Of a DNA stretch of 32,676 nt, positions 9,976-32,676 are shown one piece after another. The notes beneath the pieces are model-generated. The model saw only the letters and a list, made by a program, of their open reading frames with translations. It searched no databases and was not told where the DNA came from. Source of the stretch: Folioceros fuciformis (lineage: Eukaryota); NCBI GenBank assembly GCA_049999805.1, contig JBNGIO010006316.1, positions 560,983-593,658 on the forward strand. Direction: 5' to 3'. Position 1 is the first letter of the stretch. Each line of letters starts with the position of its first letter. The translations under genes and the position numbers were made by a program.

Positions 9976-12800
9976 TCAGCCTTTGCCGTTGCCGAGACCG
10001 TGTCTCCTGCTCCTCGCTTTCATCGAAGCCCATTCGAAATGGTCACACCGGGCTGCTGAATTAGAAGCTGGGCCCTGTGCACACGGTTCACTATCGACGT
10101 TAGCACACTGCAACGGCCGATTATCAACACCGGCCGGTGCTTACAGGGAAGGATGCCATCACTGCACTCCCACAGGTCTCCGGGAGAAGAAAGAGCAACA
10201 CCCACCTGAGCTCGAGCGCAAACATAGAACCCACGCCCAATGTTGGGCCCCGCTTTCTTCACCTGCCTCACCACGCAGGGCTCCCCATGACCTCTGCAAA
10301 GAGGGACATTGGCTGCCATGAACTGTTGAATTCTCTGCCATTCGGTGGCTGCTGTTTCTTGCTTGCCTCCAGACGCAACACCACTGCCCACAACCTCTGC
10401 CCTATCTAACACGGTGCCCTGCTTCTGTTTCTCATTCCCACACAGAGACAAGGAATCCTCTGTGTTGAACGTGGTATCAGAGTCATAACTCGACATAACA
10501 GTACACCTAAACTCTGTGTCATTCCCCATATTCATGGGCCCCTGATATACGCCGGCCTTCTCCACAACTGCTTCCACAGGCCCAGCTCGAGCGAAGAAGG
10601 ACTGGAGGCTACTCTGAACAGCTCGCTGGCCATTCAAATTTCTATCACCGCTTGACTTCTTTCCTGCTTTCGCTATCTTTTGTGGATCAACGTTCACTGT
10701 TCCTTCTACTGTTGAACATTGGGACTTTCCAACATTAACGTTCCCCTGCAGTTGAAGATTGCCCTGCCGTAGGGTACAATCCGCACCCTCCATTTTCCCA
10801 TATTCTTGCACGCCCTCTACGTGCGATTCGTTCCCGCGCTCGGCATTGCAAAACTCAGGGGTTACACCATCTTGCCATGTATCATCATGCTTTCGCTTCA
10901 ATCTCTCATCCGACGGCCCTTGTGATTGCTTTTGAAATAAAGAGACTGCCGGTGCCAGCAACGACAAGAACAAGTTGAGTCAAGAGACACTATGTGCTCC
11001 CCTTTTCAAGCATCATGAAAACACGTCAATGCATTTGTACCTATGCTTTGCTGACGACCACGAAGCTCTGGCATGAAACGAGCTGCTAGAGGAGGAACAT
11101 CGTGGGCTGGCAGACAAGGCTGCTTCCTGAGCTTGACATAAACGGGTGCGTGGTCTGAGCCTTCAAGTTTAAGGCTCCTCCCTCCAGCCCATCTGACATC
11201 AGTGCAAAACCACACGTCAGCCTTAAACAGGGGCCTGCGTGAACGACCTACCTCACCGGTTCACTTGTACACAACATCGTGGGCTGCACGAATCCTGCAA
11301 ACTATATGGATAAAATGGACAAACCTAGGGATGGAATCTGGTTTGGCACGCTTGTGCGCCAGCAGAATATCCGACTCTTCTACCTCACATTCACCAAACA
11401 AGTGGGATCCTGAATAAAAAGGGCGATCTGAATGTGAACATGGTCCACCTACAAGGATGAGGTCAATGCGAGTTCCAAAATTGAACTCCTCGGCTCCAGA
11501 AGCCTGTGACCAGCATGTGTATGCTTCTCTTCTGCAAATTGAGGTGGGACAGAAGCACATAGCTCCTCGTCAGGTCTGGCATAAACAGTAACCCTCGGAA
11601 AGTGTACTTCCAGCATGATGACACACACGGAGTGATTTAAAAGATACGTTACCGGTGGGGATGCAGCTGCCGGAACACATCAACAAATGGGCCGCCACCA
11701 GATGACAGCATGCTCCTCAACCATATTCTGCAGCTGCAGGGACGGCAAAGCACAAACACATCATACGTACCTATAACCACTAGGCTGACGAAGCCAAGTT
11801 AAAATCAACGACAAACCACATACGGATTCTGTTCAAATTCTGGCCCAGGATCACAAGAATCAATGGGGAAAGGCGAAATATTGAAGTCCCCCACAGCTAT
11901 AACAGCTCTCCCTTCTCTCAAAAGCCCCCCCCACCTGCACTGCATTACAAGACACGAGAAAAACGGGTCACAAAAGAGCGGATTGAGCACAGACAAGGAA
12001 GCAACCACCACATGACGCCACCTGTAGGGCTCTGAAGAAGTCCAATTTGAACTGCAGCCGATCTGAGTCTCCAGCTTGGACCCGAGGACCATAGATGTTG
12101 AAAAGCACTGCAAGTAAATCCAGCCTGCCTGAGTAAACCCTGAAACCCTCTGCAACAAACAGCGGCTCGCCCTTACTTCTACTCACCAAAGGAACCATGG
12201 TCAGTGACCACACACCGACCCTCACTATCCAGCCGGAGCAACTCCTGCGCGCTCATATGCTCCATGTTCCAGACTTCCTGGTAGCAGCCAACACGTCCCC
12301 TCTCCTGTGTCAACTTGCCGTCCTTGGAACAATGCAAGAGGCCCGTAAACCCCTCATCCGCAGCCAGGGGCACAGCATCATTCGCATTCAGGTGGCTTGC
12401 AACGCGGCAAAAGGTTGCCACTCCTGCAGACCATTCACTGGGGTCACAAATGGGGCATCACACATGAAAGGTAGGCACAAAGACAAATCGGGGCTCACCT
12501 GAGTAGCCAATCCGGCCCTTCTTTGCTGTACGAGTACAAGAGAAGAAGGACTCGTAGCCAGCAGCTACCGCGATGTCGGAAGACAGTTCCTGTCTGGATA
12601 ATTTAGTCTCCTGCAACCAGTGGCCAGAGATGAATGAGATGGAATCCAAAACAGGTGTGTAGTCCGCATGGGATAGGGAGCTGGCATACCACCTGAATGC
12701 AAATTATGTCTGCATTCAAAGAGTCCAAAAACGTTGCTAGAGGGCGCCCATGGGAGACCCGAGCTCGCAGCCCATTCACATTGAACGTCACTATCCTCAT
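9976..12800 (-). CDS. APE2: DNA-(apurinic/apyrimidinic site) endonuclease 2 (ExoIII-type domain, PIP box, GRF zinc finger), multi-exon
   Basis: Motifs [51 protein letters not shown] and [11 protein letters not shown] box QSSLQSFF; zf-[38 protein letters not shown]...RCDHFEW. Stop TGA at 9976-9978. Confidence 0.95.
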
Positions 12801-12985: not shown

Positions 12986-14199
12986 CGCTCACACTCCGTA
13001 TGTACTATCTTCAGTACTTTCTTATGCGTCGGCTGAATGATTTGGAGAATGTTTTCACAATTTTCTCAAATTTTGTGCTAAATCTTACCATGCCTAGAGT
13101 TTTGCATCTTGGTTTCTTCACAGCCAGCCTACTTTCACAATAGCAATTTTTGCAAGTTCTAAAATTAATGCCATAAACCTCTAAGTTTAGAGGGTCATGT
13201 GACCAAGCTTGTTCAACCTCGCATGTGGAGATGCGAGGAGCTTCTGTAGAGCTTCTGCCTTCAAGTCACTATGACACCAAACATAATCGAGGGGTCGTTC
13301 ACTATTTGTGTTACCTGGATTATCTTTGCTAACTTTGACCTGCAATGTACAGACAATCATCGGCGATGTCTTGAAATACAAGAGACGTTAAATGGCTAAC
13401 AAAAGTGATAGCTCAGATGAAAACTTACCAAGTACGGTGTCCTGTTCTCATGACGAGTTTGCATTCAAAAGCATACTTGTATTTCATAATGTAAATGATG
13501 GTGAGAAATATTGTAATCCAGTGTTAGTTAGCATAACATTTTACTAATTGAATCTTATGAAAGAGAGTGGACAAGCTCTTTGTTGACATTTTCCATCCTG
13601 ATGCCAGCAGCGCCACTAGAACATAACGCAGTGAAAGAAGGATTCTAGTTAGATCACAACAGGTCTGAGAGGATAAAGTATGATCACATTAGGTCTAAGA
13701 GGGTAAAGTATGTGTTCTGCTCATCATAGCATCCCCTGCTCCGTTGCGTTCTTTCAAGTCAATTGCTCTGCTCCCTACATGTGCTCATGTGAAGCAATTC
13801 TCACTATCTGGATTGACTATTCGCCTATCTAAGTTTCTACTTAACTGTGGCTTAGGCAGGATGTCCAGCCAGCCAGCCAGCCATGTGACAGTGATTCATT
13901 AGCTAATAATATTAAAGGCATCCAGAGTGCACGGTCCGATTGTCTCATTCGTGGAGTCCGTTGGGATAGAAACCACACCAGTTGATGGCCTACCAGAGTT
14001 AGTTAGTATACAATCCTCGAAGTTCCGAAGGTATTCCGGATCAACAACAATCCTTATTGGCTGGACAAGGACGACAAAGGCCTGAGGTCTGGCGCCATGC
14101 AGAGCTCAAGGGATTAGGTGTCCTTGTCGATGGCCGTGGACGGAATTAGGTGAGCAAAGCGAACCATCCTTGAAGCTTGCTTCTTCGAAAACAGAGCAA

Positions 14200-15320
14200 T
14201 GGACACAGCATGAAATGCAAAGCTTTGCTTGGAGGCTATGCCCTTCAAGACCAGGGGGAGGACGCTGTCCGACTCTTCACCCGAATGCAAGAGACTCGTG
14301 TCAGGCCAAATGATAGAACTTTTGCCAGTGTGTTCAAGGCATGTGGCAGCATGGTTGCCATGGAAAAAGCAACCTGGAGTGATGGGCAGTCATTCAAAGA
14401 AGCCTCGCTTGAGAAGGCTAATGTGTTACAAGAGGAAGCTGAGAATGCCTTGCAGCTTTACAATGACATGCAAGACGACGGAGTGACACCAGACGAAACC
14501 ACGTTCTTGTGCCTCCTAGAAGCCTGTAGCAAGTTGGCAGCTCTCAGTATGTGCAACAACATTGTGGGATCTGGATATGTGTGGAGTGTTACTGTCGCAA
14601 GTGCCATGGTACATGCATACGGCAGATGTGGGAGCATGGTGGAGGCTCCAAAAATCTTTGACTCGTACCCGCACCATAACGTTTTCACCTGTACTGCACT
14701 GATTGCCGGATACGCCCATTGGGGAGACACTGAGTTGAGCCTACAAGCCTTCCAGGAGATGCAGCGGATGGGCATGCGGCCAAACTCCGTTACATTTGTT
14801 CCCATTCTGTCTGCGTGTAGTCACACACGCATGTTGGCCCAAGGCATGGTGTACTTTGAATACATGAGTCGGGACTACGGTCTGATACCCACGACAGAAC
14901 ACTATGTCAGCATACAGCATAGTCCACCTCTCGGGCGTGCAGGCCTATTCGACGAGGCAGATTTCAACTATGCCCACGCAGCCTGGGTTGGCAGTGTGGT
15001 TGTCATTGCTTGGGGGCTGCACGAAGTATGGCAACGTGGAGTGTGGAAGACGTGCCTTCAAACAGGCAGTCGGTGTAGACCCCAAACACTGCGCTGCCTA
15101 CACCCTCATGCAGAACATCTATGCGCATGCCCGAATGTGGGATGAAGCAGAGGAGACAGAGGCCATGAGACTGCGTGCAGGCGCTTGGAAGAAGCCTGGT
15201 CGGAGTTGGATTGAGCATCAGAGCAAGGTGTACACGTTCTTATTGAGGCTGGACAATCAGCCCAACACCCAACCTGTTTCTGCAAAGCTATCAGAATTGA
15301 ACAATCAAATTGGACGTGAG
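14200..15320 (+). pseudogene. PLS-class PPR gene fragment with E motifs and PG box; frameshifted, no DYW domain visible
   Basis: PPR motifs AMVHAYGRCGS, TALIAGYAHWG and VTFVPILSACSH. A frameshift near 14910-14960 separates ORFs 14177 and 14904. The fragment ends WKKPGRSWIEHQSKVYTF. Confidence 0.85.
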
Positions 15321-15504
15321 GATCCCAGTTTGATTCACCTTTTCGTGACTACTGTGGAATCTCTTGTGTGGATTTCACGGCAACCTTCCAAAGGTTTTGG
15401 CCCTAACAGGGTCCACGGCTTCCACAACCTGAGTGAGTCCCTTGTATGGGTCTTGCTTGCAGTCGGGATGAGTGTGATCTTGAATTTCTGTTCGTACTCA
15501 CAGC

Positions 15505-16500
15505 TCAATTGTGGTCTCCACACGAACATACGCCACCACCCTTGAAGTGACGAACTCTGTGGGCGTCTCTAATTATGATCTCCCTATTCTCAATCTTGGC
15601 GATGATCTTCGTGCCTCTGTGGCAATGGTCACACATCCGCAGATTTTTCGTTACCAGCAAGGTGGAGCCTTCGGGCGTGTTGAGGAGACCATAAGCTAAT
15701 GCAAGCTTCTCGGCGTGTCCACCAAGAGCATCATCCTTGTTCGGATCTGGGTCCAACATCATGCCTGCATCATGCTCCATTCATAAGATTTAAGCTCCTT
15801 AGCTTTGCGCGAGTGTCCTCTGTCATGTCCCACGCAATGAATTCATGCATCTTGTGGTCCACTTGGATCGAGGCCTTTGCAGGCTTCTTACGAGCTCCTG
15901 CATTCTGTCGCATGCATGTTCTCTACTTTATCTGCGTCCTGCCACTGTCCGTCCTTGGCATATATATTGGACATGAGCACATAGACACCAGCCTGATTGG
16001 GTTCCAGTTTGACCACGCGATCAAAACATATCCTTCCTAGTTCTGCGTGACCATGCTGTCTACAGGCAGTCACCAGAGACATCCAACCCACAGTAGGATT
16101 TTCATAAGGCATTGTTCGAAGAAGTTCTGCCTCGTCCAGTTGTCCTGACCTTCCAAGAATATCAACCATGCTATTGTAGTGCTCAACTCTTGGTAAAATG
16201 CCATACTCCTCCTCCATCGTTCGAAAATAGTGACTGCCCATGCTCACCAGGCCCACATGGCTGCATGCAGCAAGGAGGCAAGAAGACGTAGCTCGCGGCA
16301 TCTGGGTCCACCCCCTGTTGCAGCATGTCCTCGAAACACTGCACATCCATTTCCCAGTCATTGGGCTGGCCATATGCATCAATGAGGGCAGTCCATGTCA
16401 CAGTGTCCCTGGTGGACAGTCTGCTAAACAGTGTCTGACAGTCATCCATGCTCCCACATTTTGCATACATATCCACAAGTGCATTTCCCATCACAGGCAA
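15505..16500 (-). pseudogene. PLS-class PPR-DYW:KP editing-factor pseudogene (several frameshifts, 5' truncated)
   Basis: Fragments NALVDMYAKCGS, LAACSHVGLV, HYNSMVDILGRSG, then KKPAKASIQVDHKMHEF (15860-15889 and onward), GHAEKLALAYG, KNLRMCDHCH and DAHRVRHFKGGGVCSCGD. These lie in at least three different frames. Confidence 0.9.
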
Positions 16501-18776: not shown

Positions 18777-19440
18777 ATGGCTGAGGCACACGTCGTCTTT
18801 GACGCGATGCCTGAAAGAGATGTTATCACGTGGAATGCGCTGATTGCAGGATACAGCCGGCCGGGGGACAGTGCAGAGGTCTTCGATTTGGTCGACAGAA
18901 TGAGAGTCGATGGCATACAACCAGATGGCATCACCTTTCTTAGTCTACTCACGGTATGCAGTCATACGGGTCTGGTGCGCAAGAGTCGCGAATATTTTGA
19001 CGGCATGAGCAGTGACTATGGCGTCGACCCAACTGTGGAGCACTACACATGCATGGTGGATGTCCTGGGCCGTGCAGGCCTACTGGACGAGGCCCTAGCT
19101 TTGGTAAAGGCAATGCCTGTACTCCCCGATGCTGCAGTTTGGCACTCTCCACTAGGTGCTTGTCAAAAGTGGCGGGACCTGGAGGTGGGACGTCATGCCT
19201 TGGACCAAGTACTGAAGCTGGACATGAAGGATGATGCAGCGTATGTGCTTATGTCGAACATATTCACCGGTACCGAGATGTGGGGGCAGGCGCAGGATAT
19301 GCAGGCAAGGAGAATAGGTGTCAGGGCCTGGAAGCAACCGGCCAGAGCTGGTGGACGGACCTGGATGGGCTGGTGCATAGTTTTCTGGTTGGGTTTGAAA
19401 GCATCCCCAAATTCGAGCCTGGCCGGTAGAGTGGCTCTCC
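18777..19440 (+). pseudogene. 5'-truncated PLS-class PPR fragment with E motifs and WW-type box
   Basis: Motifs RDVITWNALIAGY, ITFLSLLTVCSHTG and EHYTCMVDVLGRAG. After a 1-nt deletion at ~19341 the shifted frame reads WKQP(G)QSWWTDLDGLVHSFLVG. Confidence 0.85.
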
Positions 19441-20626
19441 AATAGCGTAGCCATGTCTGGTTAACAACGTTCGGGTACTTTGCTGTATTTCCTCAAATGG
19501 CACTCTCTATCCCCTGCATAGTTCCATGGGAGTCCTCCCATGAAGAGCTGCAAGCACATGATCATGAGAGGTCGCGTTTGAGGGCCAGGAGGTGGGATTT
19601 TCCGGCATCCTTAGTTTTCATTGTATGAAGCAGGCGCAGATAAAGCTGAAAGCGGAGAAGTCGGAGATCATGTTCCATCGAAGGCCAGGTTTCAGCCTGC
19701 AAGATGTATGGCGCCATTCCTGACCCAACCTTAAACCCTTGCAGGGTTGCCTCATGTGTGTATTGCGCTTCAGCACCCTCCAGGTATTCTATGATGGATC
19801 TTCATTGTCATCCTTGGAGGCAACCTTTTCTGTCAAATCTGATCGGTTGCTTGCTCAATCGCAGGAATGCCAATTTGGCCTTTTCGCCAGACCCCCGCGA
19901 TCCTGCTAACCAGCAGCAACGCAGCATGAAGTGCGCAATTTGACGCGTGTGTGCCTGTGCGGAATGTAGGGAGGCGTGACAAGTTGGGGACAGTAGTAGG
20001 AAGCATGCTTTCTCTGCTTTTGTACTGTTTCTGAACTTGAACTGAAGTGCGGCCTGGAATGTGTACCGGGCCAACAAGTGGATGTGCAGCAACAATGCGA
20101 CTGGTAAGGACATAAGTAGTGAGCGGAGCCTGGTTTCCTGGATGCGGGCAGGAAGTCGACTTTGTAATCAGCGTGAGCGGGAGATGGTCCAGCGGCTGTT
20201 CTTGTTTCCATGTCTGCAGAAAGAGGGTCACCATGCATGCGGGTGATATGCTTTGCATTCCCTTCCGTGAAACAACAGTGTATGGCCACCCGTTGTAAAT
20301 TACCCAAAAGAAACTAGCATGCGTCGCCCACAAACTCGGTTGAATTGAACTCAACGAGATTGGATGAAAACGTCGCCCCGCCCGTTTACTCAACCAGTGC
20401 GTTCCTACAGATGCATAGGTTGCCTATCCCACCTACAAGGCTGACATCAGATTCCCAGAATTAACTGGTGAACCAAGACTGCATGGGTTTTAGCTCCGAG
20501 AATCAATTTGAGTCACGTAGTTACTCCAGGTGTAGATTCTTCCATTTGATGCTCTGCGTTATCTGCCCGTCGTATAGCGTAGCCACGGATCAATGTCTCT
20601 CGCAATCGTAAGCGTAACGCGGGCCC

Positions 20627-21617
20627 ATGGCATTGCGGAAATCAGCAGGCACTTTTGGAAGGGCTCCTTCTCAATTGACTTCAAGGAGGCGAGCTTTGCC
20701 AAGCGAGCCAGCCGAAAGATGGGGGCCTTCAGTTGGACAGGCAGCTCATCCAACAGGATGGGTGGATAAAGGCGGAGCTGCCAGCCAGGTTCGTCAGCAG
20801 GAGCTATTGTGGGGACAGTTCTTTCGGGACCCAACACTGTGGTGGGATAGCAGGCATGCCAAGAAAAGTAATCGTTTGCCTGACTTCCAGCACAGAGAAT
20901 CCCATGAGGGGATCTGGCTGCACCACCTCTACAAGCCAGCCTGAGTGAAGTCGAAGCTTGCTGCTTGGGATGTGGATATGGGTCGTGAGGTCTCTAAGCC
21001 CAAACCTAGCTTGCCCGACGGTCGGGACAATCTCAGGCCTGCAGGATTGTGATGGCTGAAACTGTGAGCAAGCTATGTCATGAGGGCCTGCTCACTGAGG
21101 CTGCTGAGGCTCTGGAAGTTCTGGCGCAGACACACTCCTGTGTACCCAAGTCTCAGTTTTATACTGTACTTAAGCAATGTGTGTTGAAGAAGAATCTTGT
21201 TCTGGGTCGTCGGTCGGGTGCATGGTTTGACGATGGACAAGGGGTATCAGTCGGACACGTTCCTGAGCAATCACATTCTGCGAATGTATGCTTAGTTTGG
21301 CAGGTTGCAAGACGCGATAGATGTGTTCACCATGGTTGCTGAACCAGATGCCTTCATCTGGTCTTCCATAATCTCTGCACATGTTAGACATGGACAAGAC
21401 AAAAGCAAAGCAGGCCGTGCAGCTATATCCACGGATGCGCAGGTCCAGTGTGAAGCCAGATGGTCATCTGTTCGTGGCATCACTTCAGGCCTGTGCAAGG
21501 GGAAGGGACCTGAGAGCTGGGCAGCAGGTGCATGCTGATATCTTGGCCAGTGGGCTTGAGCCTGATTTGTTTGTTTGTAATTGCTTGGTGGACATGTATG
21601 CAAAGTGTGGCAACTTG
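20627..21617 (+). pseudogene. N-terminal part of a PLS-PPR gene carrying an OSB-type PDF motif; disrupted by stops and frameshifts
   Basis: An Arg/Ser-rich N-terminus precedes ELLWGQFFRDPTLWWDSRHAKKSNRLPDFQHRESHEGIWL (20801-20920), then PA*VKSKL with TGA at 20942. PPR motifs follow: FYTVLKQC, DAFIWSSIISAH, FVASLQAC and CNCLVDMYAKCGNL. Confidence 0.8.
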
Positions 21618-21668
21618 GTACAGTATAATGGCCGACTTGAAGGAACCCAACCCAACCCAACCCAACGC

Positions 21669-22165
21669 AATGCTTGTCGAGGCGCTGGGCGTCTTGTCAA
21701 AAGCATGAAAGCGCAGGAGTCAAGCACTGCCAACCCTACAGCAAAGCCAAGGTGCCAGCAGTGCTTGACTTTCACCTTGGCTTAACTTTACAGCAAAGCC
21801 AAGGTGTCAGAGTTTGAGGGAAGCCAAGCACAGGGGTCGGGCCCCGCCGACCTTGCCACTACCAGCAAAGCCGAGGGGTCAGACGTTCAGGAAAGCCAAG
21901 TTGTCAGAAACAGAGTGCGACTTTTGTCTTCTGTGAAAGACTGCCTCACAGTTTTCTCCACCAGTCCTGGAGATGCATCTTTGAGAGATGTCGAGGAAGG
22001 CACAAACCTCATCATAGCTTTGATGGACGCCATCATGGAGGGCTCTGAAACAGAAGATGTCTTGAGCATTCTGACAAGCTTCATTGGCATGGCGACGGAC
22101 GTGGAGGTCCAAGACAAAACCAAAGACGGGGACTATGAGAAGAAATATCAGTGTCCTGAGTTGCG
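21669..22165 (+). pseudogene. Caspase-domain fragment (catalytic-Cys motif, linker and p10 subunit), paralog of 26865-27623
   Basis: NACRGAGRLVKSMKAQ, then after a frame break PADLATTSKAEGS...KDCLTVFSTSPGDASLRDVEEGTNLI...TEDVLSILT...QCP. DNA similarity to 27249-27585 is obvious. Confidence 0.88.
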
Positions 22166-22395
22166 CGCAGCACACTTACCAAAACACTATACTGCTCTCG
22201 ACCACCCCCGACTCCTGTCATGCCTGGCTATAGTGAGTAGCATGTGGCCAGGGCCTGCAATGCCGTCAATCGAGAGTCAGGTATGCTCTTGAGCTACATG
22301 TTGTTGGTCTATTAAATACTGCCTCTGATAAGTCTTGTCACTTCTCCTTTGCCTGGCATTCTTTCCTGTTTGGCCAGAGAGACCTCTCACAGCAT

Positions 22396-22405
22396 NNNNN
22401 NNNNN
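22396..22405. other. Assembly gap (10 N) with a ~47-bp duplicated flank
   Basis: ttgcctggcattctttcctgtttggccagagagacctctcacagcat occurs immediately on both sides of the Ns. Confidence 0.95.
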
Positions 22406-22521
22406 TTGCCTGGCATTCTTTCCTGTTTGGCCAGAGAGACCTCTCACAGCATCCTGATGGGGATGAACAGAAGCCCCATGGACGCTATGCGTAGGGAAGG
22501 AAGAACTTGCGCGCATGTGCA

Positions 22522-22690
22522 CTAGGAACCTTGCTGAGCTGAGCTCAGGTGCTGGGTCCTACCACAAGCGTGCTGTACCTGCCTTCCATGTAAAGGAAGG
22601 CATCTTTGGTGCATGTCGTGTTGTAACAAGCAGGGGTAGGGGCGAGAGAATTGGAAGGAGGGTTGGAAGCAGCAGCTGAGAAAAGTTTAG
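22522..22690 (+). repeat. Dispersed repeat copy upstream of the ROCO-caspase gene
   Basis: ctaggaaccttgctgagctgagctcaggtgctgggtcctac...ccttccatgtaaaggaaggcatc...ggaagcagcagct matches the 16648-16725 and 29570-29740 regions. Confidence 0.85.
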
Positions 22691-22949
22691 CCTTTGGTGT
22701 CGTGTCTTGCCCACGATGCTGGCCGGCCCAGTGAGTTACAACACCAAGGTAGGTGTGCTTTGATAAAATACTGTGCGCGCACAAGTATGTATGGAGGAGG
22801 AATATCCTCTGGTCACAGGCACACAGAGAGAGAGCGTGGGAAGGGGAAAAGCCAAGCACAAGCACGTTCACGCGTTGATGAGTGGAGGGAGAGTGAGTGA
22901 GACCTGGCAGCTATATTGCCGGCTACCACACAATCCTCTCGTCTCGGAC

Positions 22950-23345
22950 ATTCAAGAGACCTTGTATGGTGTCCCTATCCTTACCCAGTGTGTGTGCTGT
23001 GAGGTTGTCGTCCCCTAGCCTATCCGTGTCTGGTGTTCCAACGGGATCTTCCTCAAGTGTGTATGATGTGAGGTTGTCGTCCCCTAACCCATCCGTGTCT
23101 GGTGTTCCAATCGGGATCTTCCTCAAGTGTATGTCCTGTGAGATTGATGTCACCGTCCCCTAGCCTATCCTTGTGTGGCCTGCCAATCCTCCTCGAGTGT
23201 GTTGTTGGGAGGTTGCTGGTTGCTGGCCTATCCTTGTCTGGTGTCTCAACCCTCCGCTCGTGTGTGCTTGTGAGTTGCCTGTCCCGTAGCCTGTCCTTGT
23301 CTGGTGTCGCAATCCTTGAGTATGTGCTATGAGGTTGCTGCCCCT
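22950..23345. repeat. Degenerate ~60-70-bp tandem array (~6 copies) immediately upstream of the ROCO-caspase TATA box
   Basis: gtgaggttgtcgtcccctagcctatccgtgtctggtgttcca at 22999 has a near-identical copy at 23068 (period 69). Diverged copies start at ~23138, ~23208, ~23269 and ~23329. Confidence 0.8.
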
Positions 23346-23347
23346 GC

Positions 23348-23354
23348 TATAAAA
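23348..23354 (+). promoter_or_regulatory. Candidate TATA box (CTATAAA) ~70 bp upstream of ATG 23418
   Basis: gctataaaac is followed ~25-30 bp later by a CA/pyrimidine-rich initiator-like tract. Position and motif only. Confidence 0.5.
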
Positions 23355-23417
23355 CGGATGATACATACAATCCATTCATCATATTTGCTTGCATTGGGAG
23401 GCGCAGCTTAGCACAGC

Positions 23418-26400
23418 ATGGCGGAGCAGGACGACTATCACTGGCTCTCTTTGCCGGGAATGCTGCCAGAGCTGCTGGCAGATCTGGAAGGGCACGCCTT
23501 GACCGAACTCCCCAACTTGGGCGGAACGGAGTATGGCGATTTCTTCAGAAGGAGAGCTTCAACGAGGATGGATGGCAGGTACTGGCGAGTGCGTAAGCAG
23601 GTATTGACAGCTGTTGGCCAGTGCCGCAGTCTCCGCCAGCTGAAGATATCTGAACGGTGGGAAATCGGCATCGGTCGGGAGGACGAATGCGCGGTTCTGT
23701 TGGAGGGCCTGGCATCCAACCCTTCCCTGGAATCTCTTGATCTGTGTGACTGCTCAGGTTTTGGAAGGCTGGCGGGTTGCAAGGCCCTAGGCCAGCTTAT
23801 TGCTTCTAGTCGCAGCTTGCGACAGCTGAAGGCATGGGACATTGGACTTGGTACCGCTGGACTTGGTGCCCTGGTCGATGGCTTCAACCAGGATTCTGTC
23901 CTGGAGCATTTGAGCCTAAACTTTAACAGAGTGGGAGATGGTGAAGGGGCACAGCACCTGGCTCGCATGCTGGCCACCGCTCCCCGTCTCAATGTCCTGG
24001 ACCTGTATGGGATCGGCATGGATGAGGAGGGAGTCCAGTGTATTGCGAACGCTCTTCCGCTCCATGCCTCGCTCCGGACACTTCAGTTGAGTGGTGATAA
24101 ATACCCGAGTGACAGTAGTACAATTAGGGGTTCCGTACAGGGCAGCCTGGGGCTAATGAGCACCTTGTGCAAACTGGCTTTCACCCGTGCTGATGCTGAG
24201 GCTGATGCTCCCATATCTGGGGTCACCAAGCTGACGTTGGATGTCGGGAAGGGAGACGAGCCAGGCCTGGCCGACGCCCTTGCCGGAATGTTGCGCACCA
24301 ACGATTGTATCACGGAGCTTCGGATCAGTTGTTGTGTTGTCAAGTTCGGCCTGGACGCCTGGCGCCACAACTCCACCCTCTCCACGCTTTTCTTGTCCGA
24401 CTATGAGCGTGACGGGTCGTTAAGTGAATTTTCGATGTCGTTTCTGGAGTGCAAATCATTACGCATCTTGGCTTTGTACAGGATAACGGGGCCCTCTTTC
24501 TTCAAAGCGGTGATGCAGTCTTTGGCGGAAAATACATCTTTGAATGAGTTCCGCATTGTGGATTGCAAGGGACTTGACGATGAGCTATTCAGAGAATTGA
24601 TGCAGTCGCTCCAAGTCAACACCACTTTGCAGGAGATCAGCGTACGGGCTACGAATTGGGAGACGGAGGGAAAGCAGGCCATCATCAACGCGACGTTGGC
24701 ACGCAATTTTAGTCACAGGGCCTACTGGCCTTTGCTTTTGGAGGGGCATGAGGCTGTGAAGCCCAGGGTCGGCCGCCTTTTCCTGTGCGGTGCACCTTAC
24801 GCAGGGAAGACCACTCTCCGAAACACCATGATCACCGCATGGCGCGCATGGCAACCACACACATCACATTGTACAGGAGCCGCTTCAGCCAAGCGAGTCC
24901 AATCGTGGGAACAACTGTTTCTAGGTTGGAATGGTTTCTGGTTCGGTAATGTTCCACTCATTGGAGCTGCATCATACAACCAGGTGGGAACTGTTCCCAG
25001 AACGGAAGGCATAGAAATCGATGTGCTGCGCAACGACGACGAGATGGAAGTTACCATTTGGGATCTGGCTGGACAAGCTCACTACCGTGCTCTGCAAGAC
25101 TACTTGTTCCCGAGCTTCAACCAGACATGTGTCTTCCTGTTCACATTCAACCCACTTGATGCCCACAAGCCTGGCGAACCCCTTCCGTCCGATGAAATGC
25201 TGCTGGACAAGTTCAGGAACGGCTTCAAGTTTTGGCTTAGATTTATCCACTCCAATTCTCGCAACGTGGGTTCCTGTTTGCCTCGGGTATTTGTGGTTGT
25301 CACTCATAAGGATCGGATGGAGGATTTGGACGCTAAATATCTGGTTGGTCTGCTGCAACCAGTCGTGGAAGAGTTGGCCAAGACTTTCGAGGAGGTACTT
25401 CTTATCAGGACAACGCCTTTCTTCATGGATGCTCGATCTGAACAGACTGTGCAGCCTTTGCTGGAGCAGCTATTCCAATCATTTCAAGAGCTATTTGCGC
25501 TTCCTTTGTTTTCGGTCCCGAAGGCGTGCAATCGATTGAGTGCTGCTTTGACTCACTGGGTATCTCAAAATCCAGGTCAGCCTCTGGTGACCAAGGAGAG
25601 GTGCAAAAACCTGTTTAACGCACATGATGAGCAACGCCTTCAAGCAATTCTTGCCTATCTGCACAACGCAGGCCGGGTCATCTGGTTCCAGGATGCAGAT
25701 GCAGATGCTGTGGTGGTAAATCCACACTGGATCAGTCATTCGTTCCTGGGCCATCTCACTGAGTGCCTAGCCGGACAGTCTTCCCTGGGGAGATCGCGAG
25801 ACCGTGGATTTGTTGCTGAAGACCTCCTCAACGACACCTTAGCCCGGATCCTCAAGGACACGCACGCGGCCGACAGGATTCGTGTCGAAGATTTGGTATC
25901 ATTGATGATGAGGCTAAACTTGTGCTATCGAGATGACGCGAATCCAAGGCCTGGATTCTTCGTTCCGTTCACCTTGGATGACGCCGAAGGTAAAGCTCTT
26001 CGTGGGGAACGACAGCTGCACTGGGACGGGGTAACGGCGGGCCAGTACAATTACGTGGGGAGGCGGCTACAATGCCGAGATGAAACCAAGACGTTTCTCG
26101 GTCCAGGATTCTTTCCAAGATTCCAAGTACGTTACCTTGTGAACTGTCTCTGTAGATCTGTCGCTAGTGATTTATCCTCTCTTGGGTTTCCTGACTATAT
26201 CGCCAACGGTTGTGCATTGCAGGTCAAATTACGACAGATCTTGTTCGATGGGCTCTCCGGTATGGAGTCTCATCAATATAGCATTGCCCGTAACTTGATA
26301 ACATTTAAGTATGGTGGTATGGATGTGTTCTTGGAGAGTAGCGGGGATATTGGGGAGGAGACCGGGGATATCGGGGATCGTGTTGACATTTTGATGAGGT

Positions 26401-27626
26401 CACTCAGGAGGAAGGACGAAACGATCCAGTTTCTCCAGAGGCATATTGTTGCAGAGCTGAGAGCATTTTGTGCTTCTCCTGAAGGTAGTCCTGGAGTTGA
26501 GCTTGTAGAAGGGATCATCAGGACCGAGTGTGTAGAGAAGCTCACACCTTGTATTCACCGACACAATCAATCAGTTCTCACACACAGGTTGATGGAGTCG
26601 TTTCTCAAAAGCCTGCAGACCTCTCAGATTTCCTCCGGTTCGGATCTGCCTCCTCACTTCCACGTCTGGCCAGCTGCAGAAAGGCCTGAAGCCAGTCTAC
26701 GCTGTGCACAAGAGGATGCCAGAAACTTCTTAAGTAGCGGTGAGGTTGAAAGTGTTTTGAAGACGTGGCGGACAGGGCTACCGCGCAATGCAACGAGTGG
26801 CCCTTCAGCTGGCTCAAGTCACTCACAGGGATCGCCTCACATCGAGTCAGTGCAGGAATTATCATATCCAAACCAAAGGGTGAAAGTAGGTGAGCGGAGA
26901 GGTCTGGCAATGATAGTCAGCATGGAAGACCACAGACATGGAGGACAGGTAGACAGAGGGCGACTTGAAGCTCTCTTCGAGATGTTGAATTTTGAAACAG
27001 ATATCGTGGTGAGCGGTCCTAAGGAAGGGAAATCAAGGTTGAAAGCTATTCTCAGGGTCCCTCACCTAGCAGAAGACGATTGCTTTCTGTTTTGCGTGAA
27101 CGCCCATGGTGGGACTGATGAAGACGGAAGGCAGTATGTTTTCTCAGGTGAAGCAGACAAGGCGGAGAAGCTTTATGTTGAAGAAGATATTTTGAAGCCC
27201 ATCGCTGAATGCCAGTATTTGGCACACAAGCCTAAGGTGGTCATCATAAATGCTTGTCGAGGAACTGGCCGTCTTGTCAAAAACATGAAAGCACAGGGGT
27301 CGAGCCCCGCCGACCTTGCCACTACCAGCAAAGCCGAGGGGTCAGAGGTTGAGGGAAGGCAGGGTCCCAACAAGAGAACTCGACCCTTGTATCAGGCGAA
27401 AGATATTCTCACCGTCTTCTCTACCAGTCCTGGAGATTTATCCTTCAGAAATGTGGAGGAAGGCACAAACTTCATCGTATCTTTCATGAGAGCCATCATT
27501 GACCACTCTCGTACCGAAGATGTGGTGAGCATTCTAACAAGAGTGACTCGCGAGGTCACCGAAATGCAGAACGTGCAGTGTCCCCAGTTCGTCAGCTCTC
27601 TCACTGGAAAGCTATACTGGTCTTAA
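23418..27626 (+). CDS. TORNADO1-like ROCO protein (RI-type LRRs, Roc GTPase, COR) with C-terminal caspase (peptidase C14A-like) domain; probable 96-nt in-frame intron 26127-26222
   Basis: LRRs: SLESLDLCDC, VLEHLSLNFNRVGD, RLNVLDLYGIGMD. Roc: P-loop GAPYAGKTT (24789), RTEGIEI, TIWDLAGQ, VVTHKD. COR/TRN1-like: VVVNPHW, YVGRRLQCRD..TFLGPGFFPRFQV. Caspase from ~26865: RHGGQVD, DDCFLFCVNAHG, KPKVVIINACRG, DILTVFSTSPGDLSFRN, QCPQFVSSLTGKLYW. The 1402-codon ORF is uninterrupted. Confidence 0.9.
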   Translation: MAEQDDYHWLSLPGMLPELLADLEGHALTELPNLGGTEYGDFFRRRASTRMDGRYWRVRKQVLTAVGQCRSLRQLKISERWEIGIGREDECAVLLEGLASNPSLESLDLCDCSGFGRLAGCKALGQLIASSRSLRQLKAWDIGLGTAGLGALVDGFNQDSVLEHLSLNFNRVGDGEGAQHLARMLATAPRLNVLDLYGIGMDEEGVQCIANALPLHASLRTLQLSGDKYPSDSSTIRGSVQGSLGLMSTLCKLAFTRADAEADAPISGVTKLTLDVGKGDEPGLADALAGMLRTNDCITELRISCCVVKFGLDAWRHNSTLSTLFLSDYERDGSLSEFSMSFLECKSLRILALYRITGPSFFKAVMQSLAENTSLNEFRIVDCKGLDDELFRELMQSLQVNTTLQEISVRATNWETEGKQAIINATLARNFSHRAYWPLLLEGHEAVKPRVGRLFLCGAPYAGKTTLRNTMITAWRAWQPHTSHCTGAASAKRVQSWEQLFLGWNGFWFGNVPLIGAASYNQVGTVPRTEGIEIDVLRNDDEMEVTIWDLAGQAHYRALQDYLFPSFNQTCVFLFTFNPLDAHKPGEPLPSDEMLLDKFRNGFKFWLRFIHSNSRNVGSCLPRVFVVVTHKDRMEDLDAKYLVGLLQPVVEELAKTFEEVLLIRTTPFFMDARSEQTVQPLLEQLFQSFQELFALPLFSVPKACNRLSAALTHWVSQNPGQPLVTKERCKNLFNAHDEQRLQAILAYLHNAGRVIWFQDADADAVVVNPHWISHSFLGHLTECLAGQSSLGRSRDRGFVAEDLLNDTLARILKDTHAADRIRVEDLVSLMMRLNLCYRDDANPRPGFFVPFTLDDAEGKALRGERQLHWDGVTAGQYNYVGRRLQCRDETKTFLGPGFFPRFQVRYLVNCLCRSVASDLSSLGFPDYIANGCALQVKLRQILFDGLSGMESHQYSIARNLITFKYGGMDVFLESSGDIGEETGDIGDRVDILMRSLRRKDETIQFLQRHIVAELRAFCASPEGSPGVELVEGIIRTECVEKLTPCIHRHNQSVLTHRLMESFLKSLQTSQISSGSDLPPHFHVWPAAERPEASLRCAQEDARNFLSSGEVESVLKTWRTGLPRNATSGPSAGSSHSQGSPHIESVQELSYPNQRVKVGERRGLAMIVSMEDHRHGGQVDRGRLEALFEMLNFETDIVVSGPKEGKSRLKAILRVPHLAEDDCFLFCVNAHGGTDEDGRQYVFSGEADKAEKLYVEEDILKPIAECQYLAHKPKVVIINACRGTGRLVKNMKAQGSSPADLATTSKAEGSEVEGRQGPNKRTRPLYQAKDILTVFSTSPGDLSFRNVEEGTNFIVSFMRAIIDHSRTEDVVSILTRVTREVTEMQNVQCPQFVSSLTGKLYWS

Positions 27627-29392
27627 ATCACTCCATTCTCTACACATGCCTGGTTGGCTAGCGTGAGGAACGTGTATTGCCTTCCCTCAAGTGTGAGGTA
27701 TCAAGTGTCTCTCTAGCTACATACTGTACTGCCTGTTTCTTGGTGTGACAAACTGCTTCTGATCTGACCTTCTCTCGTCTCCTCCCGTTCTCTGCCTGTT
27801 CGGCAAGAACGTTCTCTCACAGGGTCCTGTCCTGGTGTGGATCGACAGATGATCAGTCGTGGAGGCCATGTGTAGGGAGAGAAGATGGTGCTGTGTTCGT
27901 ACACACCTGGGAGGTGTTGGTTTCAAGAATGTCTCAAATTGAGAACGGTGAGACTGTAAATCGATCCTGTGTATTGTGAATATGAGAACTGTACAAGGAA
28001 ATGCTCAGAGAGCATATGAGAGATGAGTCACGAACAGTCACGACTGTTCATGAACTGGCTTGATCACTGAAGTCCTAATTCCACGGTCGGCTTATGTGTA
28101 TGTTTTCCTACATACTCACAAAGAAGCAAGTCCAAGTTTGGAGTCTGAACTTCTGGTGTGTACATTGTTCTGTACACCAGCGCGAGAATATATGTATCCT
28201 TCATCTTCCATTCCAGACCAGGCAAAAGCAAAGCTGGGACAGCATGCCCTGTCTGAACTGGCGTCGAGGCTTCTGCCTTCGTGTCACTGTGATACCAGGC
28301 AGCACGCAGCGGTAGCTCACGGCTTGTCACAACTGAATTATGGTTGGTAGCACGTTCTAGGTTTGGTGCTGTCGCCGTCGTTTATCCTGGTCTGGACCAC
28401 GCCTGTCTCTCTCTTCCTCTATTCATAAAGCCCGGGTTTTCTCCACTACACACTGACCGACGTATGTACATGTACTGCATGTAATATTCGTGTCCCGCTC
28501 AGCAGCAGCGAAGAACGTTCTCGATCGCGCAGGATGTCAAGGGGAATTGTGAACGGGGCGTATCTCGGTGTTGGTAGGCAGATGTTTCATTGGCCGGGCT
28601 GTGTGACTCGTTTCGGCTTGCTCAATAGTAATGCGTAAGGCGTTGCCCCACAAAATGCATATTCTCATCCCTGATGACTGGCTGCAGAAGTGAGACAACT
28701 TGGCCAGTCAGCAAGCCAACTTGTCTCTCCTTCTGAGTGATGTACCGGGCCAAAGGCGTAGTGCTGTGTTGTGTTGTGACTCGAGCTCTTGTAGGGCGGA
28801 GATGTGGAACATGGATGCCAGCCTTGCAACAGAACGGCCCATTCGTCCTGGCCTGTCTTGCACTGCCACCGCTCCAATCGGATACCTGACCCCTCCACTG
28901 ACGGCTAACATCAGTTCATGACCGGGCAAGGCGAATGGCATCATGATCAAATGAGGAGGTGTAGAAGGAATTTCTTCTACGCCCTACCATGACCAGCAGA
29001 CAATCTCAGGACGAAAGGTTCCAAACAGGCTGAAAGTGGAGAGGACTAGAGCTTATTCAGAACAGGACCCTTCCTAACTGGAGCATTCGGCGGACGGGGT
29101 CCACGAATTGAGGGTTTGTCTTCCGACAATGTGGAGGATGAGACTGTTTTTTCTCTCCTTGTTTGCTCCTTGTTTGGCACACACTGAATAGGATAATTGC
29201 ATAGTTTGTGTGAATGGGAGAATTGCATAGTTTGTATGGGTAGTGGACGGTAGTTTGTGTACTCCTTCCCTGCGCTCTGCCGACGAATCGCCCTCTACAT
29301 CCTTGAGCGTGCTCGCCTTTTATGTTTACGATAGCTGAGCTCACCTGAGTACAACGGGAGGCAGACCTTTTGATACACACACAATTCAGAAA

Positions 29393-29750
29393 GAAACCAC
29401 ATACAGACTGTTTCTGATTCGAATACGCAATCTGGCTTTTCTTCCTTTGGCAGGCATGATGTATATTTTCGAGGTACGTACAATGTGGGATTTGAAGCAA
29501 CCCAGACGGGCAGTCTCATTCAGAGGAAAATGCTCCAAAGGAGGGGATGACGATGAATGGGCTGGGAGCCTAGCTGAGCCGAGCTGAGCAGAACTCAGGT
29601 GGTGGGATCCTACGGTCCATAGACCCACCTTCCATGTGAAGGAAGGCATCTCTCCTGCAAGGTGCAGTGTAGCAACAGTCATGTTCTGTCCTCAGGTGAC
29701 AAGTGGGGGAGGGAAGGAAAGCTGGAAGCAGCAGCTTAGAAAACTTTTAC
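29393..29750 (+). repeat. Dispersed repeat, longest copy, upstream of the ROCO-caspase pseudogene
   Basis: Contains all the blocks shared with the 16500, 18585 and 22522 copies. Confidence 0.85.
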
Positions 29751-29844
29751 CTCAAAAGCTCCTCAAGCTCGCAACCTTGGACCAGGTCACCAGATCCTCA
29801 AAAGCACGGAAGCGGACGAGACTGGTGGTGAACATTTCGTATTA

Positions 29845-31270
29845 TTGATGGAGAGACTAAACTTGTGCTATGAAGATATGCGAACCCTAGCCCTGGATTC
29901 TTCGTTCCCTTCACCTTGGATGACACAGAAGGTAAAGATCTTCAAGGGAACGACAGTTGGTCTGGAAGGGTGGTACAGCACTCAAGTACACGTACTTAGG
30001 GAGGCGGCTACAATGCCGAGAGACTGGAAGGGTGGTACAGTGCACAAGTACAACTACTTAGAGAGGTGGCTACAATGCCGAGATAAACGAACACGTTTGT
30101 CGTCCAGGCTTCTTTCCAAGATTCTAGGTACGTTACCTTGTGAGGTCTGTGACACTTCGTTAGTGATATATGCTCTCTTTGGCTTTCATGACATGGCCAA
30201 TGGTTGTGCGTTGCAGGTCAAGTTACGACAGATCTTGTTTAATGGACCCTAGGGTATGAAGTGTCATCAGAATAGCATTGCCCGCAACTTGATCAAATTT
30301 AACTACTATGTTATGGAATTATTTTTGGAGAGCAGTGGGGATATTGGGGAGGAGACCGGGGACATTGGTGATCGTGTTGACATTTTGATGAGGTCACTCA
30401 AGAGCAAAGACAAAACGATCGAATTTCTCCAGCAGAGTTTGGTTGCGGAACTGAGAGCATTTTGTGCTTCTCCTGAAGGTAGTCCTGGAGTTGAACTAGT
30501 AGAAGGGATCATCAGGACTGAGTGTGTGGAGAACCTCAGGGAAGGAACCATCGTATCCAAAGTCAGTCACAGGGACCGCCTCTACTGAAGTCAGGGAAGG
30601 AACCGTCATATCCAAACGAAAGGGTGAAAGCAGGTCACGGGCGAGGTCTTGCAATGATAGTCAGTATAGAAAAAGGCAGAGATGGAGGACAGCTAGACAG
30701 AGGGCGACTCGACGTTCTTCTCCGTGGTCTGCCCTTGAAGTTTGAGATGAGTCTGTGTGGTGGACGATCTTAAGGAAGCGAAATCAACGTTGGAGCGCGT
30801 TGTCAGGCATCCTGACTTCGATAAGGACGATTGTTTTCTGTTTTACGTAAATGCCCATGGTGAGACTGAAGAAGATGGTAGAGAGTATGTTTGCTTAGGT
30901 GAAGCAGACAAGGCGGAGAAGCTTTATGTCGAGGAAGTTATTTTAAAGCCCATCGCTGAATGCGGGAATTTGGCAAACAAGCCGAAGGTGGTTGTCATAA
31001 ATGTTTGTCGAGGCACCGCCAGCCTTGCCACTAGCAGCAAAGCCATGGGCTCAGACGTTGAGGAAAGCCAGGGTCCCAGCAAGAGAATTCGACTCCTGTA
31101 TTATGCGAGCAACTTTCTCACCGTGTACTCCACCAGTCCTGGAGACTAATCTTTGAGAGATGTCAAGAAAGGCCCAAACTTCATCATAGCTTTCATGAAC
31201 GTCATCATAGCTTTTGTTTTTGTATGTTTGCTTTTGTTTGTAGGTGAAGCAGACAACGCCGAGAAGCTGC
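29845..31270 (+). pseudogene. Degenerate paralog of the ROCO-caspase gene (C-terminal COR plus caspase), with frameshifts, stops and internal duplications
   Basis: Retains MERLNLCY, WLQCRD, ESSGDIGEETGDIGDRVDILMRSL, ELRAFCASPEGSPGVELVEGIIRTECVE, GRGLAMIVS, DDCFLFYVNAHG, KPKVVVINVCRG and STSPGD. In-frame TAG at 30250 and TAA at 31147. Confidence 0.92.
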
Positions 31271-32129
31271 GGCGGAGTGCGGGAAGCCGCTGTGGGTGGG
31301 ATCATTCTGTACCTCGTTGCCCGTGGCTGAGGCCACCACGTGATCTCATCGTCACTTGCTTAACAGAGAGAGATATGAGTGATGGTCATGGAGAGCACCC
31401 CTCATGAAGTTAGGATGAGGTCTTCAAGAGTTCTGACCGTTAGGAACCTTTTTTCTGATCGAACTGGGCCCACTGCCGGAAGAGTGTCCGATCGATCATG
31501 GTGCATGCTAGTCCTCGGGACTGGAAATTTAATGCCAGAACCACAGCAGAAGGGAATAGTAGGATGAGGTTGATTGAGCGAAGCCGTGATGCAGACCAGA
31601 TTTAGTCCCCGCGGCCCGGTGACGGAAATGCGTCAGGTGCATTTCAAGCCTGGCGAGCTTGCCAGTGCCACACAAGTAAGGCAGTGGAAAGCGTGCGCAT
31701 CTGCCTGGTTTGAAGAACTGTCGCAGCCCTTGTGTTGCTTGTTCATGGTTTGATCTTTCGGCTTGCTTTCAGGTGGACCAAGGGCATGTCAGGCAGTGTG
31801 GAACAATTTCATTGCGGACAGCACTACTGGCAAGGTATGATGCTCTGGCGGCTGAGGATTAGCTGTTGAATTCGAGAGCACCCAGGCACGGACTGACTCG
31901 CACTTAGTGCACAGCAAAACGAGGAGAGCTGTTTGTTCTGAATCCTGGTCGAATCAGGTGCAGTGCAGATAAGCTGCCCTCAGCCGTTCATTCAGCCAGG
32001 GACTCTACCCTCAATCGGAGGAAAGAGTCCAGGGACAGCGGAAAGCTGAAGGAGCTCGTGCGAGTGTTGTAGATGTAACGATGTCCATGGATGCAGTGAC
32101 CTTTCCAACGATGGACTGGCTGGTGACAG

Positions 32130-32676
32130 GGAAATGTGTGGCATGGAATGCACTGATTCCTAGGAATGCAACGGAGGGGCTCGGCTGATCTGTATGGACG
32201 TTTGTTCTGTCTGGACAGAATGGATCAGGAGGGCCTGATTTTGGCGGACTCGTTGAGAAGGACGTTGTGACGTGGACTACCATGATATCCGGGTACTCCC
32301 AGCAGGGCACGGGGCAGTAAACGCTTCTTGTCTACAGTGCTATGCTGGAAGGACGGGTGGCTGTACCCAGCTCTGTGACTTATGTCTGCCTCCTGCGGGC
32401 ATGTGCAAGTGTGGGCTCCCCTGCTCTGGTGACGGGGAAGCAGCTCCATGAGCTAATCAGAGCACAAGGACATCTGCCTAATGTGTCTGTAGCCAATAGC
32501 TTGGTGAACATGTATGCGAAGTGTGGCAGCCTAGAGGATGCCCAAGGATTGTGTTGTGAAATGGGTCAGAAAGACGTGGTGACGTGGACTGCTCTAGTTG
32601 CAGGGTATTCCCAACAGGGCAAGGGCCAGGAGGCCCTTCAGCTCTACAGTGCCATGCAGGAAGAAGGCATCGCTGT
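32130..32676 (+). pseudogene. PLS-class PPR gene fragment with internal stop, running off the window end
   Basis: Hand translation gives EKDVVTWTTMISGYSQQGTGQ* (TAA ~32318), then VTYVCLLRACASV, VANSLVNMYAKCGSLEDA and KDVVTWTALVAGYSQQGKGQEALQLY. Confidence 0.82.

Follow-up and report, generated by a model that had tools for sequence, protein, structure and literature searches.

Plants show Asp-directed 'caspase-like' activities, and their metacaspases carry a CHSG-type active-site Cys motif and an acidic S1 pocket that accepts Arg or Lys. The paracaspase MALT1 has a six-stranded caspase-like fold, is activated by dimerization and cleaves after Arg without the two S1 arginines, and other ROCO proteins bear kinase or death domains. 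According to recent abstracts, caspases are confined to animals or absent from plants, which have metacaspases only (PMC12521494, PMC10896300), and a further abstract describes the evidence for cysteine-dependent Asp-specific proteases in plant immunity as limited (PMC10403534). According to the excerpted part of a 2014 review, plant ROCO proteins consist of N-terminal RI-like leucine-rich repeats (LRRs) followed by ROC-COR, as in Tornado1, and occur in flowering plants only (PMC4104024). In prokaryotic conflict systems and bacterial NLR-like proteins, according to extracts of two papers, caspase-superfamily peptidases are fused or linked to nucleotide-switch sensors (PMC7159879, PMC10952240). 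Here we describe a gene in a window of 32,676 nucleotides (the whole stretch of DNA analyzed) from Folioceros fuciformis (assembly GCA_049999805.1, contig JBNGIO010006316.1, positions 560,983 to 593,658 of the forward strand). Its product, P0001, is an LRR-Roc-COR (ROCO) protein whose C-terminal domain is supported by sequence and predicted fold as caspase-type (MEROPS C14A-like) and not as a metacaspase or paracaspase domain. Computation establishes the protein's architecture, the assignment of the domain to its family, an intact His/Cys dyad and two basic S1 arginines.

The gene occupies window positions 23418-27626 (+) as a single open reading frame of 1402 codons plus a stop. A preliminary description of this DNA, made from the letters alone, had placed an animal-type caspase domain at 26865-27626, corresponding to residues 1150-1402. 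The parts of the gene are as follows.

23418..27626, + strand: whole gene, LRR-Roc-COR-caspase, one polypeptide (open reading frame and Pfam domains)
23418..24779, + strand: N-terminal LRR region, ribonuclease-inhibitor/NLRP-like, residues 1-454 (ROCO and NLRP3-like alignments)
24780..25337, + strand: Roc GTPase domain, residues ~455-640 (G motifs, Pfam Roc, bryophyte ROCO alignments)
25593..25967, + strand: COR-A domain, residues 726-850 (Pfam PF16095)
25968..26771, + strand: remaining ROCO body, COR-B-like, residues 851-1118 (last bryophyte-homologous block)
26772..26840, + strand: low-complexity linker between ROCO body and caspase domain, residues 1119-1141 (low pLDDT; the caspase profile envelope begins at 1142)
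26841..27263, + strand: large-subunit (p20-like) half, residues 1142-1282, with R1173 at 26934-26936, H1230 at 27105-27107 and C1280 at 27255-27257 (Pfam, phmmer, hmmalign)
27264..27404, + strand: intersubunit-type linker, residues 1283-1329, predicted disordered, Asp at 1299 and 1329 (pLDDT 47-59, model residues ~170-200)
27405..27623, + strand: small-subunit (p10-like) half, residues 1330-1402, with R1344 at 27447-27449; its C-terminal strand is the predicted dimer interface (phmmer, hmmalign, models)

The resemblance of the C-terminal domain to C14 peptidases is far above chance. The Pfam Peptidase_C14 profile (PF00656) matches residues 1161-1400 over its full length (1-233 of 233) at E 5.9e-26, scoring 92 bits against a cut-off of 21.4. 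As this model spans caspases, metacaspases, and paracaspases alike, other tests were used to tell the type. When residues 1119-1402 were compared as a single sequence with all PDB chains by phmmer, 210 distinct sequences matched at E<=1; the best 60 of these were all caspases, led by Dronc (E 1.8e-13) and caspase-8 (4e-12) and then caspase-3, CED-3, and caspase-9, and MALT1 was not among the best 60. The same program, run with the caspase domain against 1.84 billion representative sequences, returned 1083 matches at E<=1e-3, 60 at <=1e-10, and none at <=1e-30, with a highest identity to any animal sequence of ~25-35%. The nearest clusters in an ESM Atlas feature search were caspase-1-B-like, caspase-14-like, and caspase-3, at 0.94-0.95.

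Four key residues of caspases are in place. Alignment to caspase-8 with HMMER, with which hmmalign to the caspase profile agrees, puts R1173, H1230, C1280, and R1344 on the Arg, His, Cys, and Arg columns of caspases, which we take to be R179, H237, C285, and R341 in caspase-1 numbering. H1230 lies in NAHGG and C1280 in NACRG, a pentapeptide that begins with Asn rather than the Gln of caspases. Thus both S1 arginines are present and the Gln283 position is Asn1278, a residue found there in three of ten non-plant sequences as well, one of them a named bivalve caspase-2; since the substitution also occurs outside the plant clade described below, the change alone need not disqualify the pocket. The motifs quoted in the preliminary description were all located at the residue numbers it gave (HRHGGQVD at 1172-1179, VNAHGG at 1227-1232, INACRG at 1277-1282, STSPGDLSFRN at 1335-1345 with R1344, and the terminal QCPQFVSSLTGKLYWS at 1387-1402), its linker of ~45 residues measures 47 (1283-1329), and its statement that the His/Cys dyad and both S1 arginines are intact, with Gln283 changed to Asn, was borne out by hmmalign. 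Pfam found no death-fold prodomain (CARD or DED) in P0001, the N-terminus of which is ROCO.

An AlphaFold2 (AF2) model of the domain (284 residues from 1119) has a pLDDT of 85.8 and a pTM of 0.82, with a mean pLDDT of 47-56 over the first 20 residues. It contains six main strands, at model residues 44-50, 74-80, 104-110, 155-160, 212-216, and 272-275; the linker, at 170-205, is disordered. Comparison of this model with 48,161 representative solved chains by VIA-align gave the following matches.

Caspase family, 1jxq (caspase-9) Z 28.9, 4jj7 Z 28.7, 4pry Z 27.8; 27-28% identity for 4jj7 and 4pry
Caspase family, eight entries including Sf-caspase-1, caspase-4, CED-3, c-FLIP, and Dronc, Z 28.9-23.7; 17-28% identity
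Paracaspase MALT1, two entries, Z 22.4 and 20.0; 18-19% identity
Metacaspases AtMC9, AtMC4, Yca1, and TbMCA2, Z 19.3, 19.1, 16.1, and 13.1; 9-12% identity
Legumain 4aw9, Z 17.8; 15% identity

Active caspases show 22-28% identity in these structural alignments, and Foldseek with the same model places caspase-8 first (E 1.4e-17). Superposition of a predicted structure on caspases had been proposed as a check in the preliminary description; the best fit is to caspase-9, followed by 4jj7 and 4pry, which are caspase-3/-8 peptide-complex entries. The caspase type claimed there, as opposed to a metacaspase, agrees with the PDB matches, the fold Z scores, the INACRG string, and the presence of Arg at both S1 positions, and the sequence part of this evidence does not depend on the AF2 model.

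Two copies of the domain are predicted to form a homodimer, with a score of 0.74 against 0.54 for the best of three controls, contact agreement between runs of at least 33%, and a partner pLDDT of at least 69. The predicted dimer is symmetric, with an interface at model residues 252-263 and 270-280 in which 274 pairs with 274, involving a caspase-like last strand and the preceding helix. Of 30 proteins solved as one-chain pairs, 21 reached the mark used for calling a dimer, as against none of 23 solved as single chains; among eukaryotic proteins 17 of 29 did so, though of the seven that lack an older solved relative only one did. As caspase dimers have already been solved, the pass may reflect the predictor's prior exposure to them.

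The caspase domain belongs to a distinct clade of plant sequences that, by tree placement, is also represented in liverworts and a hornwort. A FastTree phylogeny of 150 domains groups 14 rows with P0001 (support 98). In a quick IQ-TREE run of 56 rows, composed of 13 plant rows, two sister rows and every third remaining first-domain row after removal of four long-branch rows and one near-duplicate, the 13 plant rows form one group (SH-aLRT 99) adjoined by P0031 and P0055 (SH-aLRT 97). Thirty matches were looked up by name, and the 15 for which an organism was given comprise five from bryophytes, ten from animals, and none from prokaryotes. The bryophyte members come from Marchantia polymorpha (two), M. 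paleacea, Riccia fluitans, and a Nothoceros aenigmaticus transcriptome, to which a profile search of 90% clusters with the plant alignment (three matches in all) added one from Riccia sorocarpa. The term 'animal-type' used in the preliminary description holds in the family sense; the plant sequences form their own clade and are not nested among the sampled animal caspases. Several Marchantia and Riccia relatives bear the automatic UniProt label 'Caspase family p20 domain-containing protein', so the domain is not wholly unseen in databases. Two hydrolase-fused members of the clade are P0020 (M. polymorpha) and P0030 (M. paleacea); on some of these proteins the NCBI label is 'protein SERAC1'.

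Conservation within the clade can be followed in the 13 members that have both halves of the domain. The equivalent of R179 is kept in all 13, His in 11, Cys in 12, and the equivalent of R341 in 11, with all four residues kept in ten; the Gln283 position is Asn in 11. P0022 has Gly in place of the catalytic Cys, whereas P0029 and P0049 have Tyr for His and lack the second Arg. These three proteins are likely pseudo-proteases as judged by residue loss, and some relatives are therefore certainly not proteases.

Searches beyond eukaryotes yielded little. Pattern scans found six weak loci in metagenomes and two in prokaryote genomes; the best prokaryotic one, in a Woesearchaeota genome bin (L007, 4359-5438, +), encodes a 359-residue protein with an orthocaspase-like C-terminal part (NAHGN ... 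INACHSGG) that did not reach E 0.001 against PF00656. No close prokaryotic relative of the caspase domain was found by pattern scan of prokaryote genomes with a PF00656 check. Among proteins of 771-2454 residues, a word index returned no match to the caspase part, which reflects a limit of the tool, because phmmer found an 807-residue Marchantia protein.

The rest of the polypeptide, up to residue 1118, is on homology a plant LRR-Roc-COR protein with relatives among the ROCO proteins of bryophytes. Searching with the whole protein gave 12 matches, of which the best nine (E 1.6e-79 to 1e-15) are LRR-Roc-COR proteins of ~1260-1490 residues; six of the nine come from Riccia, Marchantia, Sphagnum, and Calypogeia, and the five best bryophyte relatives have E values of 1.6e-79 to 5e-60. 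These matches show that the flowering-plants-only range, as worded in the excerpted review (PMC4104024), is outdated. Homology spans residues ~30-1118 and ends there, with an LRR part at ~30-475, a stretch at 523-917 that matches bryophyte ROCO proteins at E 1e-46 to 8.5e-54, and a last block in which residues 954-1118 align with 927-1100 of P0002 (E 3.4e-20). The GTPase motifs are G1 GAPYAGKT at 458-465, G3 DLAGQ at 549-553, and G4 THKD at 629-632. Pfam gives COR-A (PF16095) at residues 726-850 with E 1.7e-8 (34.9 bits against a cut-off of 35.3), a weak Roc match with E 4.5e-4 (20.9 bits against 27) and a weak LRR_4 match (E 0.019); Roc passes its cut-off in three of six bryophyte ROCO relatives scanned. 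Residues 63-233 also align to the LRRs of the NLRP3-like proteins P0011-P0013. The preliminary description had called the N-terminus 'TRN1-type': its ROCO homology stands, and support for the label itself, which stays tentative, comes from the bryophyte ROCO matches.

None of the six bryophyte ROCO relatives scanned with Pfam carries a C14 domain. Instead, the bryophyte proteins (P0002-P0010) have their own conserved C-terminal module of ~300 residues without a Pfam match, and since ROCO homology stops at 1118 and the relatives lack C14, the caspase domain occupies the place of this different module. The module has a long predicted helix followed by L-H-x-M-C-E ... H ... D-Q-x-G and W-x-C-x-x-C motifs, and its AF2 model (pLDDT 54.6) was too poor for a fold search. 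That it might be a degenerate caspase was considered and rejected, phmmer and hmmsearch with filters off giving E>0.1 and hhalign a probability of 0.12%. The fusion in P0001 has counterparts: P0015 and P0022, from other assemblies, are colinear with it from residues 982 and 980, respectively, through ROCO body and caspase domain (E 2e-43 and 5e-40, 29-30% identity). Recurrence of the junction in these two proteins means that it is no artifact of the present assembly.

Set against described systems, the C-terminal domain of P0001 most resembles the metazoan initiator caspases (caspase-8, caspase-9, and Dronc; C14A), which provide the best sequence and fold matches and share with it the dyad, the S1 arginines, the p20-linker-p10 order, the Q-x-P...L-Y-aromatic C-terminal end, and the predicted last-strand dimer. 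Unlike them, P0001 has no CARD or DED prodomain, bears its domain C-terminal to a 1118-residue ROCO body, has Asn for Gln283, and comes from a land plant, whereas known members are metazoan; it belongs to a clade separate from the sampled animal sequences. A death-fold prodomain and a metazoan host characterize the caspases known so far, not the peptidase unit as such. Plant metacaspases (Arabidopsis MC4 and MC9; C14B) share the caspase-hemoglobinase fold (Z 19.1-19.3), PF00656, and the kingdom, but structural identity to them is only 9-10%, and P0001 has INACRG and basic S1 positions. Metacaspases have an eight-stranded sheet; the P0001 model has six main strands, a count that may have been biased by the alignment, and metacaspase Z scores (19.3-13.1) lie below those of all full-length caspases. 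MALT1 has a caspase-like fold (Z 22.4 and 20.0) but 18-19% identity. With ROCO proteins (TORNADO1-type, DAPK1, and LRRK2) P0001 shares the LRR-Roc-COR order and GTPase motifs, and its homology to bryophyte members reaches residue 1118; these bryophyte relatives differ in the C-terminal region, with C14 in none of six and a module of their own. Liverwort alpha/beta-hydrolase-caspase proteins (Mp6g00860, Mp6g00900, Mapa_003498, and Riccia R1flu_002472) are placed in the same clade and likewise carry the domain at the C-terminus, and P0020, P0030, and P0057 among the hydrolase-caspases keep the Arg, His, Cys, and Arg residues; they differ from P0001 in having one to several alpha/beta-hydrolase units or a short N-terminus instead of ROCO, at ~30% identity. 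Prokaryotic NTPase-caspase systems, so far as the extracts cited above describe them, follow the same logic of sensor plus caspase-superfamily peptidase but employ STAND or other NTPases and distant superfamily members.

The gene lies among plant genes and beside two partial copies of itself. The open reading frame at 710-1429 (-) encodes PsaD, with the PsaD domain at residues 107-237 and ~100 extra N-terminal residues. The other features of the surroundings are listed here.

14177-15545 (+), 15888-16382 (-), 18777-19445 (+), 21381-21785 (+), and 32321-32674 (+): PLS-type pentatricopeptide repeat (PPR) genes or fragments, several with E motifs
21648..22196, + strand: upstream partial copy, linker and p10-like half only, matching residues 1271-1402 at 40% identity (tblastn E 7.8e-29)
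29791..31209, + strand: downstream degenerate copy, matching residues 810-1361 at 54-61% identity, three pieces in two frames, no LRR or Roc (tblastn, frames and stops)

Within the upstream copy, which directly follows the PPR-like open reading frame 21381-21785 and stands shortly before a 10-N gap (22396-22405), the frame 21804-22292 matches Peptidase_C14 at E 4.6e-7. The downstream copy retains no more than a COR-B-like part and the greater part of the caspase domain; its positions 30751-31149 match Peptidase_C14 at E 3e-10, and its active-site string still has Cys. Composition shows no break across the window: GC and third-position GC (GC3) are 0.50 and 0.51 in the caspase part and 0.52-0.55 and 0.54-0.58 in the PPR genes, and window GC is 0.51. 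The psaD and PLS-type PPR neighbors identify the stretch as land-plant nuclear DNA, and together with the uniform composition and the ROCO homology in the same frame they support the earlier assignment of the gene to a plant nucleus. The extra N-terminus of PsaD fits nuclear encoding with a transit peptide; the GC3 of psaD, 0.73, is far above that of the other window genes. A further open reading frame, at 10020-10973 (-), matches no family apart from a GRF-type zinc finger (E 1e-7). The PPR cluster is repeated in the genome, as reads pile up there and join 21600 to ~32500.

Public read data point to more copies. Three public runs (one labelled organism, two studies) contain 0.34-0.38 of the gene's sampled words, all in short Logan contigs. 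Over 21000-32676 these contigs cover all 30 bins, intergenic ones included, with many variants of 95-99% identity that suggest a multi-copy family; no single contig bridging the ROCO-caspase junction was seen among the Logan contigs of the three runs.

The explanation that best accounts for these observations, and one we hold to be probable, is that of a genuine land-plant nuclear gene encoding in one polypeptide an LRR-Roc-COR GTP-switch and a C14A-like cysteine protease domain, working as sensor and executioner. On this explanation the domain would be an active protease cleaving after an acidic residue, Asp or possibly Glu, the latter being considered as a P1 residue because Gln283 is Asn. 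By analogy with initiator caspases it may be switched on by last-strand dimerization, for which the ROCO body rather than a CARD or DED adaptor would supply proximity, through COR-mediated dimerization under the Roc GTPase and the LRR sensor. Such a protein could serve as a one-chain sensor-executioner in immunity or cell death, and D1299 and D1329 in the linker might, speculatively, be sites of self-processing. The tandem, partly decayed copies and the multi-copy read signal would fit a fast-turning immunity or cell-death family.

Several observations pull the other way. The Asn in place of Gln283 makes the S1 pocket different from that of classical caspases, a catalytic or S1 residue is missing from three of the 13 clade members, and Roc and COR-A both fall slightly under their Pfam cut-offs in P0001. 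The alignment supplied to AF2 (A1, 49 sequences) consists mostly of animal caspases and may bias the model toward a caspase shape, and the trees, which lack a paracaspase or metacaspase outgroup, do not root the plant clade with respect to animal caspases. The activation mechanism is drawn by analogy. Of the window's three copies two have degenerated, so the family is in turnover and the intact copy could itself be heading for loss; none of the runs listed as containing the gene's words is an RNA run, which shows neither expression nor silence.

A caspase-fold module acting as a noncatalytic scaffold or as a protease not directed at Asp, engaged in self-processing or protein recruitment and not as a death executioner, seems to us rather unlikely, and it is the alternative that survives best. 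The Asn at the Gln283 position and the three clade members without His, Cys, or the second Arg are what one would expect of it, the inactive caspase homolog c-FLIP fits the model at Z 23.8, and in the excerpted text of one study ~70% of the caspase domains that take the effector position in NTPase-linked conflict systems of prokaryotes are reported inactive (PMC7159879). Against this, P0001 and ten of 13 relatives keep all four key residues, and named animal caspases share the Asn at the Gln283 position.

We see only a slim chance that the gene has no present function, being silent or in decay within a tandem family. The truncation or frameshifting of both neighboring copies, the many 95-99% unitig variants that suggest a multi-copy family, and the lack of an RNA run among those listed are compatible with such a state, but a stop-free 4.2-kb frame with intact GTPase motifs and catalytic residues would be unexpected in a dead gene, the fusion is maintained at ~30% identity in two other assemblies, and the hornwort relative comes from a transcriptome.

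It is very improbable that the domain is instead a metacaspase, paracaspase, or bacterial orthocaspase (C14B-like) with convergent caspase-like motifs. Pfam Peptidase_C14 does not discriminate between these types, and MALT1, at Z 22.4, lies little under the lowest caspases. However, caspases made up all of the best 60 of 210 PDB matches, structural alignment shows 22-28% identity with active caspases but 9-12% with metacaspases, and the two S1 positions carry Arg, whereas C14B enzymes have an acidic pocket; prokaryotic loci were weak, one of them with an ACHSGG-type site, and none of the 15 organism-named matches was prokaryotic. A contaminant or chimera, in which an animal caspase was misjoined to plant DNA, had been named in advance as what would refute the assignment and is hardly credible: the nearest relatives that do not belong to the plant clade are animal caspases and a 10-N gap is present at 22396-22405, but the gap lies ~1 kb upstream of the gene, the caspase domain is in frame with a plant ROCO body, two other assemblies have the same junction, the gene is flanked on either side by partial copies amid PPR genes, composition is uniform, and identity to animal sequences is only ~25-35%.

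The peptidase family is already known and its liverwort members already carry automatic labels; the fusion of a caspase to a ROCO protein in a plant is a surprising variant. No published account of a plant caspase-type domain or of a ROCO-caspase fusion was found in searches of a full-text collection with few subscription journals. The gene and the liverwort and hornwort clade to which it belongs provide concrete, clonable candidates that are caspase-type, have an intact dyad and a basic S1 pocket, and are fused to a sensor. With them one can test whether a true caspase activity exists in any plant, how ROCO GTPases can drive an effector domain, and whether the caspase lineage is older than animals or has moved between kingdoms. 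More tentatively, and as a proposal that may well prove wrong, non-seed land plants could possess a working caspase system of their own, comprising ROCO-caspases and, in liverworts, hydrolase-caspases, in which LRR/GTPase sensing leads to dimerization-induced proteolysis after Asp or Glu. If so, such proteins would be a one-polypeptide plant counterpart of the apoptosome or inflammasome, and the C14A lineage would have a greater age or mobility than the 'animals only' view permits.

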